Source: an uncultured Methanospirillum sp.
GTDB taxonomy: Archaea > Halobacteriota > Methanomicrobia > Methanomicrobiales > Methanospirillaceae
Length of the DNA: 33,080 bases
Assembly (NCBI GenBank): GCA_964637135.1
Contig: CAZWTX010000029.1
Location: 1 to 33,080, forward strand
Direction of reading: 5' to 3'
Shown here: piece by piece, positions 6,269-26,777 of the stretch
How positions within the stretch are numbered: the first letter of the stretch is position 1
Layout of the letters: every line of letters starts with the position of its first letter
The notes under the pieces: generated by a model
Seen by the model: only the letters and a program-made list of their open reading frames with translations
Told to the model about the DNA's origin: nothing
Database searches by the model: none
Translations under genes and position numbers: made by a program

Positions 6269-6341
6269 GCCGCCATAACTCAGTTGGTAGAGTGACTGGC
6301 TGTTAACCAGTATGTCACAGGTTCGAGTCCTGTTGGCGGCG
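6269..6341 (+). tRNA. tRNA-Asn (GTT)
   Basis: Acceptor GCCGCCA/TGGCGGC, anticodon arm ACTGG-CT-GTT-AA-CCAGT, T-loop TTCGAGT, discriminator G. Confidence 0.97.
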
Positions 6342-19775: not shown

Positions 19776-19908
19776 AGAGGCTCTAATTAGGTTATATGTA
19801 CCACCTATTAAATATTTGGAATCAGGATTCCGGGGAGGAAGGGATCATCTCTCATACCTGCAGATGAAACCAGATCCTCAGTTCTCCCAGATCTCCGGAT
19901 TGAACAGT

Positions 19909-21678
19909 ATGGTTGTCAGATATCTACTTGGGAATGAAGCAATAGCCCACGGCTGTCTGGAGGCAGCCCTGGATGTTGCCTGTGGTTATCCGGGGACACC
20001 ATCCTCGGAAGTAATTGACACGCTCCGCGCCCTGCCTGAACGGCATTATTACGTGGAGTGGTCGGTGAACGAGAAAGTTGCATTTGAAGAGGCCCTTGCG
20101 GCATCCTGGTGCGGAAAACGAAGCCTCTGCACGATGAAGCATGTCGGCCTGAACGTTGCGGCAGATCCTCTTATGACCTCTGCCTATACCGGGGTGAAAG
20201 GTGGGTTTGTCATCCTTTCTGCAGACGATCCCTTTGCCCATTCATCCCAGAACGAACAGGACAGCAGGCGGTACGCGCATTTTGCCAGAATCCCCTGCCT
20301 TGATCCCTCGTCTGTCCAGCAGGCCCATGACCTGATGCGGGACGCCTTTGCTCTCTCTGAAGAGTTCTCCCTTCCGGTACTGTACAGGCCCACGACGCGG
20401 ATCTGTCATTCAAAGAGTGATGTCTCTCTCGGAGAGACCGTGGTATCAGACCGGACGGCACATTTTGAGAAGGATCCCACGCAGTATGTGGTCATCCCTG
20501 CCCATACCCGGATTCTCCATACAAAACTCAACGAGAAACAGCCGGCACTCGCGAAAAAACTAATCGAACGCGGGTATAATCGTGGTGAGCGGAATGGAAA
20601 GACTGCGGTCATTTGTGGCGGGGTTGCGGCAGCGTATGTCAGGGAAGTGATCCCCCCTGATGTCTCGGTGGCGGTCATCAACGCATACCCGATCGACGAG
20701 GACTGGCTGAAAGCTTTCATCAACGGGCATGATCTCGTCGTCGTCGTTGAAGAACTCGCCCCGGTCATTGAGGAAGTATGCCGGCAGGTGGCCGGCACCG
20801 TGACCGTTCTTGGGAAGAAGACCGGCCATGTTCCCTACGAGGGTGAACTGGCACCTGACCGGGTGGCGTCCTGCCTTGAAAAGGCTGGTATCAGTCTGAA
20901 AGTGTCGTATCCTCCTGTAAAGGGGGCAGTAGGACTTCCGGTCAGGCCACCGATCCTCTGTGCAGGCTGCATGCATCGGACTGCCATGTATGCGATCAAA
21001 AAAGTATTCAAAGACGGGATATTCCCGAGCGATATCGGGTGTTACACCCTTGGACTGCAACTCGGGGTCGTGGATACGGTCATCTGCATGGGAGCCTCGA
21101 TAACAGTCGCGTCAGGCATGGCCCAGGCAGGCGAGGAGCGGGATATCGTCTGTACCATTGGTGACTCCACGTTCCTCCATACCGGGATCCAGGGCCTTTT
21201 AAACGCGGTGTATAACCGTGCCAGGATCACGGTTGTCATCCTTGACAACCGGATCACAGCCATGACCGGGCATCAGCCGAACCCGACGACCGGTGAGACC
21301 GCGTGCGGGGTAGTGACACCGGCAGTCTCCCTTGAGACGATCTGTCGTGCCTGCGGGGCATCATTTGTCGAAACGGTAAGTCCGAACGATCTCATCCAGT
21401 TCACCCGGGTTCTCCGGGAGGCAAAGGAACGGGACGGAGTGAAGGTGATTATCGCAAAGCAGCCCTGTGTTATCTCCGAACGGCGCCAGAAGATTTCACG
21501 GGGGCGGTATATGGTCAATACCACGGTATGTATCGGGTGCAAAGCGTGTATCCGGTTCGGGTGCCCGGCAATCGAGCTTGATGGCGGACTCGCCAGGATC
21601 AACGAACTCTGTTCCGGTTGCGGGGTCTGTCTCCAGATCTGCCCGGTCGGCGCTATCTCCCGGGAGGTGAGGGAATGA
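19909..21678 (+). CDS. iorA: Indolepyruvate:ferredoxin oxidoreductase alpha subunit
   Basis: LLGNEAIA, GYPGTPSSE, MKHVGLNVAADP, SSQNEQD, RPPILCAGC, SDIGCY, GDSTFLH and TAMTGHQP motifs, plus two C-terminal Fe-S motifs. Start ATG 19909. Confidence 0.96.
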   Translation: MVVRYLLGNEAIAHGCLEAALDVACGYPGTPSSEVIDTLRALPERHYYVEWSVNEKVAFEEALAASWCGKRSLCTMKHVGLNVAADPLMTSAYTGVKGGFVILSADDPFAHSSQNEQDSRRYAHFARIPCLDPSSVQQAHDLMRDAFALSEEFSLPVLYRPTTRICHSKSDVSLGETVVSDRTAHFEKDPTQYVVIPAHTRILHTKLNEKQPALAKKLIERGYNRGERNGKTAVICGGVAAAYVREVIPPDVSVAVINAYPIDEDWLKAFINGHDLVVVVEELAPVIEEVCRQVAGTVTVLGKKTGHVPYEGELAPDRVASCLEKAGISLKVSYPPVKGAVGLPVRPPILCAGCMHRTAMYAIKKVFKDGIFPSDIGCYTLGLQLGVVDTVICMGASITVASGMAQAGEERDIVCTIGDSTFLHTGIQGLLNAVYNRARITVVILDNRITAMTGHQPNPTTGETACGVVTPAVSLETICRACGASFVETVSPNDLIQFTRVLREAKERDGVKVIIAKQPCVISERRQKISRGRYMVNTTVCIGCKACIRFGCPAIELDGGLARINELCSGCGVCLQICPVGAISREVRE

Positions 21679-22253
21679 GTTTTGATCTCCTGATCGTAGG
21701 GATCGGTGGCCAGGGAACCATCCTGACATCGAACATCATCGGCGAAGCCTGTGTGATTGAGGGGATCGCTGTCCGGGGAGCGGAAACCCATGGCATGGCC
21801 CAGCGCGGGGGTTCGGTTGAGACCCAGATCCGGATCGGCCAGGAATGGGGTTCCCTGATTGCACCCGGCACGGCTGACATGATCATCTCCTTTGATCTCA
21901 TGGAAACCGTCAGGTATTCCCATTACCTCAATGCAGGAGGGAAGATTTTCACGAGCAATGAATACGTGATACCGACCACGGTCTTTATGCAGGACTTCCC
22001 CGCTCCTGATGAATCCTTCCTTCTGGCCTCCCTCGGGGAGTTTGACCTGGTGACGGTTGATGCCCGTCGGATCGCTGAAGAGGCAGGGAGCATCCTCACC
22101 CAGAACGTGGTGCTTCTCGGTGCTGCTTCGGTGCATCTTCCCCTGCAGGCTGCGTCTCTTGAGGAGGCGATCCGACGCTGTGTCCCCGGGAAGACGATCG
22201 ATCTGAACCTGAAGGCCTTCAGATCGGGGCAGATGGTAACCGGCAGGACCTGA
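21675..22253 (+). CDS. iorB: Indolepyruvate:ferredoxin oxidoreductase beta subunit
   Basis: GIGGQGTIL and ETHGMAQRGGSV motifs. GGAGGTGA SD and ATGA overlap with iorA. Confidence 0.95.
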   Translation: MSFDLLIVGIGGQGTILTSNIIGEACVIEGIAVRGAETHGMAQRGGSVETQIRIGQEWGSLIAPGTADMIISFDLMETVRYSHYLNAGGKIFTSNEYVIPTTVFMQDFPAPDESFLLASLGEFDLVTVDARRIAEEAGSILTQNVVLLGAASVHLPLQAASLEEAIRRCVPGKTIDLNLKAFRSGQMVTGRT

Positions 22254-22341
22254 TCGGCTGTCGTTCCCGATCTCCCCGACGGTCAGCCGGATTCATCAAA
22301 TGGTGCACCACGTGAAAAACCCTGCACCAACCCGGCGATCC

Positions 22342-22350
22342 TTTTTTATG
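22342..22350 (+). promoter_or_regulatory. TATA-like element of the leu operon
   Basis: TTTTTTATG positioned so that transcription would start near ATG 22368/22374. Confidence 0.5.
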
Positions 22351-22367
22351 TTCTACGGGTAACCTGT

Positions 22368-22448
22368 ATGATCATGTCTCAACACGTAACTGAGACCCGG
22401 AACGTCGCATCATCTCCCGATGCGGCAGGTCGCTTTCTCCAGCGATAA
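22368..22448 (+). other. Putative leader uORF (26 codons, [26 protein letters not shown]) overlapping the leuA start
   Basis: Manual translation from ATG 22368 (second ATG 22374) to TAA 22446-22448. leuA is in the +1 frame. Translation not demonstrated. Confidence 0.45.
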
Positions 22449-23952
22449 GCATAGCAAACGAAGAATTACTGTTTTCGATACCACGCTCCGTGACGGTGAA
22501 CAGACTCCCGGTGTGTCCTTCTCTCCTGCTGACAAGATCGAGATCGCCCGTCAGTTATCTGCTATAGGCGTGCATGTGATCGAGGCCGGATTTCCGGCGT
22601 CTTCTGAGGATGAATTCTCCATCGTCAGGTCTATTGCATCCCAGGGGTTTGATGCCACCATCTGTGGCCTGGCCCGGTCGGTCAGATCTGACGTGGACCG
22701 GTGCATCGATGCAGGAGTGGAGATGGTGCATGTCTTCATTCCCACCTCTGAAGTGCAGCGTGTTCATACGATCCGTAAGAGCCACGAGGAGGTCGTTGCA
22801 ATAACCGGGGATATCATTCGGTATGCCCGGGATCATGCAGACAAGGTTCTCTTCTCTGCAATGGATGCCACCCGTACCGGCATCCCCGAACTGATCGAGG
22901 TGTACCGGGCAGCCGTTGAGGCTGGTGCAACAGCGATCAATGTACCTGACACTGTTGGTGTTGCAACCCCGGCATCAATGCATCACCTCATCTCCTCCCT
23001 CCGGAAAGAGATATCCTGTACCATAGATGTCCACTGCCACAATGACTTCGGGATGGCAAATGCCAACACGGTCTCGGCAGTTGAGGCTGGTGCTGACCAG
23101 GTTCAGGTTACAGTGAACGGCATCGGGGAGCGGGCAGGAAATGCGGACATAGCCGCAACCGTGATGTCCATCGAGTCTATTCTCGGGTATACCACAGGGA
23201 TTGTGACCCCCCGGCTGGTCGAAACCTCCCGGATGGTCTCCCGGTTTTCAGGGATCATGGTCCCGCCGACCTACCCGGTCGTCGGTGAACATGCGTTCTC
23301 CCACGAGAGCGGGATCCATGCCCAGGGCGTACTGGAACATGCCGGCACCTTTGAACCCGGGATCATGACCCCTGAGATGGTCGGTCACCGCCGGCGGCTG
23401 AAACTGGGAAAACATGTCGGCAGGCATGCAATCAGGGAGATCCTCTCCCAGGTGCATATTGTGCCCGATGATACCCAGATGGATGAAATTATCGCCCGGG
23501 TCAAGCAGATTGCAGCGAGAGGCCGGCGTATCACCGAACATGACCTCTACGAGATCGCCGAGACGGTCATCGGTGCCTTGTCAACGGTCAGGTACATCGA
23601 TCTCGTGGATATCGCGATCATGACCGGGAACCACATGATCCCGACCGCGACCGTCAGGGCGAGGGTGAATGGGGTTGAACAGGTCTGTTGCAGTACCGGG
23701 AACGGTTCGGTCGATGCCGCGATCAGGGCATTGATTGGCACGGTTCCAAAAACGGCAACCTTAAAGGAGTTCAATATCTCTGCGATATCAGAGGGAAGCG
23801 ATGCCCTCGGGCAGGTAACCCTCGTTGTCGAGGATGAAAAAGGACGAATCTTCGATGCAGCTGCGTCAGGAGATGATATCGTACTGGCTTCCGTTGAAGC
23901 AATGGCGAACGCTTTGAATATGGTGTACCGCAATGGCACAAACGATAACTGA
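22420..23952 (+). CDS. leuA: 2-isopropylmalate synthase (LeuA/CimA family, with C-terminal regulatory domain)
   Basis: [41 protein letters not shown] and HESGIH motifs. Heads leuC-leuD-leuB. Citramalate synthase not fully excluded. Confidence 0.88.
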
Positions 23953-25183
23953 AAAGATCTTCTCCTCCCGGTCCGGGAGGACGGTAATGGCAGGAGACGT
24001 GGTCATGGCCCCGGTTGACGGGGCAATGATCCATGATATCACCGGACCTCTGGCTATCGATAAGTTCCGCGAGATGGGTGGGGTCAGGGTCTTCGATCCT
24101 GAGAAGATCATCATGCTCTTTGATCACCAGACCCCGGCCGACTCCCTGAATGCGGCTGAAAACCAGAAGATGATGCGTGAATTTGCCCGTGAACAGGGTA
24201 TTTTCAATTACGATATCCGTGAGGGGGTCTGTCACCAGGTGACTCTTGAAAAAGGACGGGTAAAACCCGGAGATATCATCATCGGTGCTGATTCTCACAC
24301 CTGTACGTATGGAGCGGTCGGGGCATTCGCGACCGGTGTCGGCTCGACAGATATGGGGTTTGCTATCCGGTATGGCTGTCTGTACTTCCGTGTTCCGGAG
24401 AGTATCCGTGCCAACGTGACCGGTTCATTCCCGTCCCGGGTAGGTCCCAAGGATCTGATCCTCAGCATCACGAAGGATATCGGGGTTGACGGGGCGACGT
24501 ACCGGGCGGTCGAGTTCACCGGTGAGACGATCGAAACGATGGGCATGCCTGGGCGGATGACCTGCTGCAATATGGCCATCGAGATGGGTGGAAAAGCCGG
24601 TATCGTCCCCCCCGATGCCACTACAGAAACATATCTCTCTGGTCGGGGACTGTTTGCAAACACGGATCTGAAGAGTGACGAGGGGGCATCCTATGTCTCA
24701 TGGCGCGATTACGATGTCACCGATCTCGCTCCCCAGGTTGCCGTGCCGCATAATGTGGACCAGGTCGTTGATGTTGGTGAGGTCGCCGGGACACCGGTTG
24801 ACCAGGTCTTCATCGGTTCCTGCACGAACGGGAGGTTCGAGGATCTCGCCGAGGCAGCAGACGTGCTCGGAAACCGGAAGTTTTCAGATACTGTCAGGGT
24901 TCTGATCATCCCGGCATCCCGTGCCGAGTACCTCAAGGCACTGCGTGCCGGCCTGATTGAACAGTTTGTCGAAGCGGGTGCACTTGTCGAGGCACCCTGC
25001 TGCGGGCCGTGCATGGGTGGATCCTTCGGCCTGATCGCAGGCGGGGAGGTCTGCTTTGCTACTTCGAACCGGAATTTCAAGGGACGACAGGGATCCCCGG
25101 ACGGAAAGGTGTATCTCGGCTCGGCAGCGACAGCAGCGGCTACCGCGATCACCGGCGAGATCACCGACCCGAGGGAGGTGTAA
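23933..25183 (+). CDS. leuC: 3-isopropylmalate dehydratase large subunit
   Basis: [41 protein letters not shown] and [11 protein letters not shown] motifs. Confidence 0.93.
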
Positions 25184-25674
25184 TGATGCGGGTCTGGAAG
25201 TTTGGCGATAACATCGATACCGATGCGATCATCCCGGGCCGGTTTCTGACAATCAACGATCCGAAGGAACTCGCCATGCATGCATTCGAAGGGATCCGGG
25301 ATGATTTTGCGAAGCAGGCCGGCGAAGGTGACATCATCGTCGGCGGAAAGAACTTCGGATGCGGTTCTTCCCGGGAACATGCCCCGCTTGCACTGAAGGG
25401 AGCCGGTGTCCGGATGGTTGTGGCTGAATCCTTTGCACGGATATTTTACCGGAACAGTATCAACGTCGGTCTTCTGCCGGTTATCTGTCCGGGGGCCGGT
25501 GAGATCACCGAACAGGACACGATCGTTCCCCATCCTGAAGAGGGATACCTTGAGGTTTCCGGGCGCCGGCTCCAGGTAGAACCGGTTCCGGAGTTCCTTC
25601 AGATGATAACGCAGGCCGGTGGTCTTGTCGGGTATGCAGCAACCATAACGGAGAAGGATCTATGCACAAAGTAG
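25183..25674 (+). CDS. leuD: 3-isopropylmalate dehydratase small subunit
   Basis: VWKFGDNIDTDAIIPG, NFGCGSSREHA and SFARIFYRN motifs. GGAGGTG SD and TAATG coupling. Confidence 0.93.
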   Translation: MMRVWKFGDNIDTDAIIPGRFLTINDPKELAMHAFEGIRDDFAKQAGEGDIIVGGKNFGCGSSREHAPLALKGAGVRMVVAESFARIFYRNSINVGLLPVICPGAGEITEQDTIVPHPEEGYLEVSGRRLQVEPVPEFLQMITQAGGLVGYAATITEKDLCTK

Positions 25675-26777
25675 CCGTCATCGGTGGGGACGGTATCGGG
25701 CCTGAGATCATCAGCGCCGGCCGGACTGTCATCGATGCCGCCGGGGAAAAGTTCGGGTTTGATATCGAATGGACCGACTTTGACATCGGGGCCGAGCGGT
25801 ACCTGAAGACGGGAGAACTTGTCAGCGAGGATGAGATCGACGAACTCGGTGCGTTTCCGGCGATCTACTTCGGAGCAATCGGTGATGACCGGGTCACCCC
25901 CGGTATCCTTGAGAAGGGGATCCTCCTGGCGATACGGTTTGCATTCGACCAGTATGTGAACCTCCGCCCGGTGAAAATGCTCCCCGGTGTCGAGACCCCG
26001 CTTGCAAACAAATCCCCGGAAGATATCGACTTTCTCGTGGTGAGGGAGAATACCGAGGACTTCTATGTCGGGATCGGATCACGCCTGAAAGGAAAAGAAC
26101 ACAAGGAACTCGAGGTGATCCGGGATCTCTATACTGTGAAATTCGGGGTGGACGTTGAGTCTGATGCCGAGGAACTGGCGTACCAGATCGGGGTCACCAC
26201 GAGGGAGGGATCCCGCCGGGTGATCACGTATGCATTTGAACAGGCAATGAAACGGGACAATAAAGTAAGTTCGGTTGATAAAGCAAATGTCCTCTCCGAT
26301 GTTTACGGCCTGTGGCGCGATGTCTTCCGGGACGTTGCTGCCGGGTACCCGTCGGTCACGACTGAGTTCACCTTTGTTGATGCGATCACGATGTGGTTCG
26401 TGAAAAACCCGGAGTGGTTTGACGTCGTGGTCAGTCCGAACATGTTCGGGGACATCATCACCGATCTCGGCGCTATGATCCAGGGCGGGCTCGGGCTTGC
26501 TCCCGGGGGGAATATCAACCCGATGGGAACTTCCATGTTTGAGCCGATCCATGGTTCTGCCCCGAAGTACAAGGGACTGAATGTTGCCAATCCGCTCGCA
26601 ACCATCTGGGCCGGATCCCTCCTGCTCGACCATCTGGGAGAACGCGATGCAGCGGCACGTATTCTTGACGGAATCGGAGCGTCCATCAATGCCGGTTATG
26701 TAACAAAAGACATGGGCGGCCAGGCTTCCACAAGCGGGGTCGGCGACTGGATCGCTGACTGGATCAGAAAGACCTGA
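25662..26777 (+). CDS. leuB: 3-isopropylmalate dehydrogenase
   Basis: GDGIGPEI, VNLRP, RENTED, DKANVL, NMFGDIITD and FEPIHGSAP motifs, plus operon context. Confidence 0.9.
   Translation: MHKVAVIGGDGIGPEIISAGRTVIDAAGEKFGFDIEWTDFDIGAERYLKTGELVSEDEIDELGAFPAIYFGAIGDDRVTPGILEKGILLAIRFAFDQYVNLRPVKMLPGVETPLANKSPEDIDFLVVRENTEDFYVGIGSRLKGKEHKELEVIRDLYTVKFGVDVESDAEELAYQIGVTTREGSRRVITYAFEQAMKRDNKVSSVDKANVLSDVYGLWRDVFRDVAAGYPSVTTEFTFVDAITMWFVKNPEWFDVVVSPNMFGDIITDLGAMIQGGLGLAPGGNINPMGTSMFEPIHGSAPKYKGLNVANPLATIWAGSLLLDHLGERDAAARILDGIGASINAGYVTKDMGGQASTSGVGDWIADWIRKT

Follow-up and report, generated by a model that had tools for sequence, protein, structure and literature searches.

A candidate leucine-sensing +1 frameshift cassette at the 5' end of archaeal leuA, with an isoleucine counterpart at cimA

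Introduction

Bacterial leu and ilv attenuators use the codons of a leader ORF to report the supply of the pathway amino acid. In translation, according to the accessible portions of a 2016 review, no starvation-specific trans-frame protein was known from hungry-codon shifting (PMC5009743), and a 2021 review, in the portions available to us, lists one programmed -1 frameshift demonstrated in a cellular archaeal gene (PMC8211752).

The nearest described case is the start-codon problem of the Haloferax leuA2 gene, HVO_1510. In the accessible text of their article, Pfeiffer and Dyall-Smith (2021) speculate on slippage from an out-of-frame ATG and on leucine control, and consider an in-frame CTG start equally open (PMC8305020). 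The same text gives the transcript start 2-4 nt downstream of the out-of-frame ATG, with stated uncertainty, and reports that the 18-residue HVO_1510 peptide with Glu-45/Phe-46 is missing from ArcPP and that the next peptide is seen upstream of Met-93 (PMC8305020). Disruption of another Haloferax gene, HVO_0644, leads to isoleucine auxotrophy (PMC8305020, accessible part), and HVO_0644A, the uORF of Haloferax cimA, is listed as a leaderless small ORF (sORF) seen by Ribo-seq in the available part of PMC10117724. Here we compare with these systems the 5' end of leuA in a 33,080-nt stretch of DNA from an uncultured Methanospirillum sp. (the window, i.e. the whole stretch analysed).

Results

Layout of the leuA 5' end

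In the window, a short upstream ORF (uORF) overlaps leuA in a different frame. The features of the region are:

22342..22350, + strand: TATA-like box, T-rich; best 8-mer at 22343, 31 nt before ATG 22374
22374..22448, + strand: uORF (24 codons) whose frame lies one base upstream of that of leuA (ORF reading and alignment)
22404..22426, + strand: predicted hairpin of 8 bp (22404-22411 with 22419-22426) within the uORF (predicted fold and covariation)
22420..22422, + strand: in-frame ATG chosen by gene callers, unconserved and inside the hairpin
22424..22430, + strand: Shine-Dalgarno (SD)-like stretch ending 3 nt before the P-site codon (predicted 16S rRNA 3'-end pairing)
22434..22439, + strand: predicted +1 shift site, P-site TTT and A-site CTC (Leu), with re-pairing on TTC 22435-22437
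22446..22448, + strand: uORF stop TAA, two sense codons past CTC
22435..23952, + strand: reading frame of leuA (2-isopropylmalate synthase) from the predicted point of entry (NCBIfam PRK00915.1-2 over cut-off)
23933..25183, 25183..25674 and 25662..26777, + strand: leuC-, leuD- and leuB-like genes, each overlapping the preceding gene

The leuA frame is shut by TAA 22387-22389 and open from 22390 onward, and Phe6 of the called LeuA is encoded by TTC 22435-22437. The only Leu codon of the uORF, CTC 22437-22439, directly follows TTT 22434-22436; the uORF contains no Lys codon. Counted from an extra ATG at 22368, the upstream ORF has 26 codons (22368-22448); ATG 22374 alone is invariant (19/19 aligned Methanomicrobiales loci) and is the more likely start from the alignment. 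This invariance, together with a TATA spacing of 31 nt as in most relatives (best 8-mer 29-33 nt before the site-nearest ATG in 88 of 131 leuA loci), makes ATG 22374 likely to be a leaderless start. The first-pass annotation had placed the ORF, the TATA run, the TAA, TTT-CTC, Phe6 and the stop at coordinates that all proved correct on re-reading.

The called leuA ORF has 510 codons, its relatives carry the name 2-isopropylmalate synthase, and the closest named loci show 80-83% protein identity. The leuC-, leuD- and leuB-like genes could inherit the switch through coupling. Directly upstream of the leu operon lies iorAB (indolepyruvate oxidoreductase, 19816-22253), and the window holds five tRNA genes (at 6269, 6354, 19700, 26829 and 31414). 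An inverted repeat, GGTGCA-N15-TGCACC, is found at 22302-22328 just upstream of the TATA box and may represent a regulator site or else terminate iorB; the genome has nine palindromes of this type, and GGTGCA-type half-sites occur upstream of 43/158 leuA and 14/55 cimA genes (25 and 4 in the gene-body control).

The cassette is conserved across leuA and cimA-type genes

LeuA-family loci were gathered from named genomes and from genomes of the genus, order and phylum; once duplicates and loci with <130 nt upstream or <250 aa were excluded, 226 genes were left. Their tree splits into three clades of 159 leuA, 55 cimA-type and 12 genes which we take to be aksA-type. NCBIfam does not separate leuA from cimA, and the cimA label is based on three things: the position in the tree, an ilvB gene immediately downstream in four genomes (leuA has leuCDB neighbours) and the link to HVO_0644. 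The family names used for loci below are in part our own putative assignments.

By a looser rule, the site is present at 132/159 leuA and 47/55 cimA loci. An ATG in the uORF frame reaches the site in all 132 leuA loci (37 and 29 for the other two frames), and the uORF stop falls 0-9 sense codons past the Leu codon in every one, at 2 codons in 83. At cimA, a uORF ATG reaches the site in 39 of 47 loci, and GTG or TTG does so in 6 more. Since the loci are related, these counts overstate independence; among representatives with <75% identity, the Leu pattern is found in 26/34 leuA and the Ile pattern in 12/15 cimA, the remainder being without the site bar one spurious match. The first-pass annotation had proposed that an upstream-frame ATG, the codon pair and a nearby stop would be conserved, in contrast to the in-frame ATG, and the alignment bears this out: the upstream-frame ATG, an NTT-Leu pair and the stop are kept in all site-bearing leuA loci, and the codon at the position of ATG 22420 is ATG in only 2/19 loci of the genus (the rest being ACT 7, GTA 6, GTG 3 and ACG 1).

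Among the 27 leuA loci lacking the site, 5 are, by eye, variants that still keep Leu; they have a changed P-site codon (CAT-CTT-CTC, AAT-CTA, GTT-CTA; L026, L031, L037, L068 and L135). Whole families of the phylum (22 leuA loci within L131-L163, and several cimA) have no cassette and begin at an ordinary ATG near the catalytic domain, which would suggest repeated loss. In five cases (L071, L077, L102, L103, L108) leuA and cimA are transcribed in opposite directions out of a shared short intergenic region, and each gene has a uORF of its own. One Methanoregula-type leuA with the cassette (L080) sits on a contig labelled as a candidate bacterium, probably through binning contamination.

When the whole 2.8-Mb genome was scanned with a profile from which the window locus had been left out, 1609 motif matches were obtained, and the layout filters retained 4 of them. 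Two of these four are leuA and cimA, indicating that the window layout is more than chance. We rejected the other two, one as an ordinary SD-led start and one as likely spurious. A looser scan of the genome returned 216 candidates and no further clear case, and by these scans leuA and cimA appear to be the only convincing cassettes in this genome. The ilvB, trpE, hisG and aspartate kinase loci of five genomes, inspected by eye, have ordinary starts and no such layout.

The A-site codon is Leu in leuA and Ile in cimA

We built a 12-nt profile from the 9 nt preceding the site and the P-site codon, leaving the A-site codon out, with 101 Methanomicrobiales leuA loci for training. Because the seed sites were chosen using the Leu codon, weight is given to the held-out result alone. 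Held-out matches of at least 6 bits were obtained at 30/58 other leuA and 34/55 cimA loci, all 64 in the uORF frame, and the codon that follows is Leu in 30/30 leuA and Ile in 34/34 cimA matches. Among the 12 aksA-like controls, one has a profile match, in its own frame at its ATG.

With the looser rule, the A-site codon is Leu in 132/132 leuA loci (CTT 87, TTA 21, CTC 20, CTA 3, TTG 1) and Ile in 45/47 cimA loci, the other two being one Leu and one spurious Pro. Where the leuA frame encodes Phe before TTY or TCN, the codon is TTC in 107/107 sites vs 275/347 in gene bodies; it is TTT in 22/25 cases in which the uORF Leu is kept regardless. Since TTT would abolish the uORF Leu in those 107 sites, the codon choice points to selection acting on the uORF-frame codon.

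The first-pass annotation had the P-site tRNA re-pairing perfectly after the shift. This is so at the window (TTT to TTC) and does not generalize: other P-site codons are GTT, ATT and GAA, for which about two of the three pairs would form. Re-pairing is full or wobble in 123/132 leuA loci and weaker in cimA, the imperfect cases including TTT to TTA (38) and ATT to TTA (6) in cimA and GTT to TTC (8) in leuA.

A cimA-clade gene divergent from leuA carries Leu at its site (L108), a possible retuning. In the window's own genome, the cimA-type gene (L259, G000:C2:24553-24579) is the first of a cimA-ilvB operon, and its uORF, 8 codons long, contains TTT-ATT. With a TATA box ~43-46 nt before the ATG, it seems leadered.

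A hairpin and an SD-like stretch precede the site

The predicted hairpin ends 7 nt before the P-site codon and would bury ATG 22420. In the 19 aligned loci, 82.9% of the hairpin cells are paired, with the tested structure taken from the window sequence, which favours the fit there; 5/8 pairs have changed on both sides. None of 500 shuffles reached the hairpin's paired cells and covariation, and slid controls gave at most 50.5%. An anchored test scored high in 35/51 dereplicated Methanomicrobiales loci (mean 13.1; best swap control 11.1). In halobacterial leuA, 5/6 loci were high, yet not above the best control, and the test failed in the leuA of other families (0/22) and in methanogen-type cimA representatives (3/40). 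Whole-window folding z-scores are weak, and gapless consensus folding around the site found nothing, as loop lengths differ among loci; it was single folds and the anchored test that brought out the hairpin. No conserved structure was found 3' of the site.

The predicted duplex of the SD-like stretch with the 16S rRNA 3' end, taken from relatives since the window's own assembly gave none by pattern, amounts to -6.9 kcal/mol. Mean pairing peaks just 5' of the site at -7.0 (leuA) and -6.6 (cimA) kcal/mol, against a background of -2.7 +/- 2.0. This pairing would end 2-3 nt before the site and overlaps the hairpin; it is missing in some genera, as in Methanoculleus-type loci (-1.8). Both the hairpin and the SD-like stretch may have stimulatory roles.

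Gene-frame starts and stops around the site

No in-frame ATG, GTG or TTG occurs within 150 nt at 52/132 leuA and 18/47 cimA site loci. All 35 site-free loci have an in-frame canonical start, which is ATG in 31. The distance from the site to the catalytic domain ranges from 34 to 55 nt and differs by whole codons only. Over this interval, the 1820 linker codons of 132 loci contain no leuA-frame stop (the third frame has stops in 88/132), and gene-frame stops come as near as three codons upstream of the site in 11 leuA and 34 cimA loci. With a stop-free stretch downstream and gene-frame stops close upstream, entry into the gene frame is confined to the site.

In a relative, RNA contigs break off 18-21 nt past the uORF ATG, and a run that is probably DNA continues beyond this point. 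A trimmed 5' end would fit these contig ends, and a transcript start past the ATG could also give them, which makes them a weak, two-sided hint.

Haloarchaeal counterparts

The Rfam cis-regulatory RNA RF03001 (leuA-Halobacteria) describes a hairpin closed alike (GUCG...CGGC), a 7-nt spacer and then GAA-AUU, and is present in 52/61 genomes of the class. From 52 input loci (7 outside the parse, one further id being a DUF7528 locus without the motif, duplicates dropped), we obtained 43 distinct parsed matches, of which 37 lie ahead of cimA-type synthase genes and 6 ahead of DUF7528 genes. Each of the 43 has the uORF ATG, the Ile codon and the gene in +1. The window locus gave no match to the RF03001 model, even with E allowed up to 10 (threshold 47.9 bits). 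Rfam returned nothing at the site for 11 loci when gathering cut-offs were applied, nor for 4 halobacterial leuA loci with E allowed up to 1. A snoRNA match in the window region (E 4.6) was discarded as chance.

The domain DUF7528 (PF24372) occurs in 43 genes of 29/81 genomes, and all 43 carry the cassette, 33 as parsed by script and 10 as read by eye (haloarchaeal loci L285, L306, L314-L323 and L334-L372). The Leu type (GTT-CTY) accounts for 23 of them and the Ile type (GAA-ATY) for 20; all 14 genomes with two copies hold one of each. An in-frame ATG is absent in 32/33 parsed genes. Leu-type copies tend to have a LEA_2-domain gene on one side and a PhoU/AbrB-type gene on the other; those of Ile type tend to occur near DUF7117 and DUF1028. 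No branched-chain gene was found among 27 neighbouring ORFs scanned, and an ESM Atlas search with DUF7528 returned only DUF7528 itself.

In Haloferax, the L310 uORF peptide is identical to HVO_0644A, and our alignment places the shift site at Glu-45/Phe-46 of HVO_1510, with Met-93 as the first firm start. Both the sORF and the ArcPP peptide pattern fit a shift. Read strictly, the mapped start of HVO_1510 and the contig ends of the relative would put the ATG off the transcript.

In the accessible part of PMC11456600, the M. mazei pair MM_0671 / MM_1284 appears: the cimA-type gene is given ATC as its start codon, positioned at the catalytic domain, and the leuA gene has an in-frame ATG upstream of the site; we regard the ATC start as a sign of a shared annotation problem. 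We found no matching sORF in the accessible part of the PMC11456600 supplement, no mention of these genes in the available text of PMC7261190, and no occurrence of 'leuA' in the accessible main text of PMC5737381. In a literature search that covered mostly non-subscription journals, no description of the site or of the Leu/Ile pair was found beyond the Haloferax speculation. The mechanism had been considered undescribed for archaeal leucine biosynthesis. As regards the site, this agrees with our search; slippage and leucine control as such had already been raised in the accessible text of PMC8305020.

Discussion

Sequence comparison establishes the layout and its conservation, the exchange of Leu for Ile, the covariation in the hairpin and the modular reuse. 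They make a +1 frameshift at the site, leaving aside what it senses, very probable in our judgement. The full model, an amino-acid-sensing programmed +1 frameshift that makes LeuA, we consider likely, with less assurance than the shift itself. The ribosome would load at ATG 22374 on a leaderless mRNA and read 20 codons, which would bring Phe-tRNA into the P site and CUC into the A site. With ample Leu-tRNA, it would read on and end at TAA 22446; when Leu-tRNA is scarce, it would pause at CUC, and the P-site tRNA would re-pair on UUC and continue in the leuA frame. The product would be LeuA with the uORF peptide as an N-terminal extension, 525 aa by arithmetic. The SD-like stretch and the hairpin, by then behind the ribosome, would favour slipping in the forward direction, and the hairpin would additionally hide leaky internal starts. 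An Ile-codon cassette would likewise gate cimA, and Leu and Ile versions would gate the haloarchaeal DUF7528 genes. The cassette would serve as bacterial attenuation does, without a terminator. Imperfect re-pairing in many loci and a canonical in-frame start of some kind in 80/132 leuA site loci, the window locus included, weigh against this model. So do the near-cognate ATC or ATT before the site, the mapped Haloferax start and the contig ends of the relative, the lack of SD-like pairing in Methanoculleus-type loci, the weak folding z-scores and the failure of the hairpin test in other-family leuA and methanogen-type cimA, the Leu of L108, and the absence of branched-chain genes among the 27 ORFs scanned near DUF7528.

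One competitor keeps the shift and gives up the sensing: the +1 shift would be genuine but run at a fixed low level, or answer to a signal other than the charged A-site tRNA. The layout evidence speaks for a shift rather than for its regulation, the hairpin and the SD-like stretch could give a constant rate, and nothing visible connects DUF7528 with leucine or isoleucine. However, the A-site is kept as an amino acid over five Leu codons and matches the pathway product in both paralogues, and Leu is rare elsewhere in the uORFs (7/607 codons, the third frame being likewise low at 18/553), so that we regard this reading as unlikely. Just as improbable to us is an account with no shift at all, in which translation of the uORF, or stalling in it, opens the hairpin and LeuA is made from ATG 22420, from a near-cognate codon or by re-initiation past the uORF stop. 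ATG 22420 does lie in the hairpin, a canonical gene-frame start occupies its position, five codons before the site, in 40/132 leuA loci, the near-cognate ATC or ATT stands two codons before the site in 85/132 leuA and 40/46 cimA loci, and for HVO_1510 a CTG start has been offered as the alternative (PMC8305020, accessible text). But no near-cognate start codon is common to all loci at any gene-frame position (this genus has GTC at the ATC/ATT position), and 88/132 leuA loci have no canonical start between the site and the domain. A ribosome stalled at the Leu codon would presumably cover the upstream starts, and the Haloferax CTG start predicts the very peptide that is missing from ArcPP. One cimA locus with TTA-ATT (L206) has a gene-frame TAA exactly at the shifted P-site codon, which is tolerable only under a shift unless this single case is an assembly error.

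Three further readings fare worse. Classical attenuation, with the uORF as leader peptide and stalling controlling transcription termination, would account for the leader ORF, the pathway-specific codon and the hairpin; we judge it quite improbable, for there is a single Leu codon and not a run (123/132 uORFs have no Leu before the P-site codon), 22200-22600 holds no terminator-like site on the + strand, the region 3' of the site shows no conserved structure, and leuA has no usable start in many loci. Polarity may nevertheless arise as a secondary effect of the shift. Correction of the frame in the RNA, by transcriptional slippage or editing, could draw on the T-rich site, which is TTTTTT in one locus group. 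Against it, two studies of a relative provide four RNA contigs that span the site with no indel, which argues against a dominant edited RNA, as contigs drop rare variants, and many sites have no long run (GTT-CTT, GAA-ATT); its chance of being right seems to us very slight. We give equally little credence to a chance overlap or an assembly error with leuA starting at 22420: a canonical in-frame ATG is indeed present in the window, but the phylum-wide conservation, and the scarcity of that ATG among congeners, refute this as a general account. Some leak from ATG 22420 in this strain is possible.

More broadly, we lean, less firmly than for the sensing model at leuA, towards the cassette being a portable gauge composed of a uORF, a hairpin and a two-codon site that turns a shortage of charged tRNA into a +1 shift. 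It would be older than the leuA/cimA duplication, be changed from Leu to Ile by one codon, and have been grafted in both versions onto DUF7528 as a pair induced by leucine and isoleucine starvation, making it the first natural, selected hungry-codon control. If this is true, a +1 recoding switch with direct amino-acid sensing would exist in hundreds of archaeal genomes, as the first case of selected natural hungry-codon frameshifting in biosynthetic control and an archaeal counterpart of attenuation. The HVO_1510 annotation problem would be settled and LeuA/CimA N-termini corrected in many databases; the RF03001 motif and the Ribo-seq small ORF would gain a function, and DUF7528 a first handle. 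The codon swap also suggests a tunable amino-acid reporter.

Among known systems, the window has in common with the HVO_1510 start-codon problem the gene family and the out-of-frame ATG, and slippage and leucine control were raised for HVO_1510 as a speculation; the account in the accessible text of PMC8305020 is without the shift site, the Leu codon, the Ile twin, the methanogen range, the hairpin and DUF7528. RF03001 shares the hairpin, the 7-nt spacer, the two site codons and the position at the 5' end of a LeuA/CimA-family gene, and differs in that its model represents the cassette with Ile (GAA-AUU), as it occurs at cimA-type genes of Halobacteria and at DUF7528 genes. Compared with the bacterial leu and ilv attenuators, the cassette has a single codon and no terminator, and its leader overlaps the enzyme and would fuse to it.

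The likeness to prfB (RF2), as described in the available portions of PMC5009743, extends to a short zero-frame ORF with the gene in +1 and to a P-site codon able to re-pair, and would further extend to a slow A-site as sensor and to the feedback logic; a predicted SD-like stretch lies ~3 nt upstream in the window, at the RF2 spacing, and is missing in some genera. The A-site codon of prfB is UGA, with the release factor as sensor, whereas here it is a Leu or Ile sense codon and the aminoacyl-tRNA would sense; the cassette would therefore work like prfB without being a member of that class. Unlike prfB, it is also archaeal, has a 5' hairpin added and varies in its P-site codon. With hungry-codon and Ty1-type +1 shifts, as covered in the same portions of PMC5009743, it would share a slow A-site codon under limiting aminoacyl-tRNA; unlike in hungry-codon shifts, the hungry codon would be a selected regulator of the gene that relieves the hunger. 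Antizyme, in that account, is likewise a metabolite-responsive +1 shift with sensor and effector in one (PMC5009743), but it senses polyamine, shifts at a stop codon and in many cases has a pseudoknot on the 3' side, whereas here there is a sense codon and no conserved 3' structure. With a predicted working akin to prfB and antizyme, yet without the stop codon that defines them, the cassette would be a separate form of regulatory +1 frameshifting.
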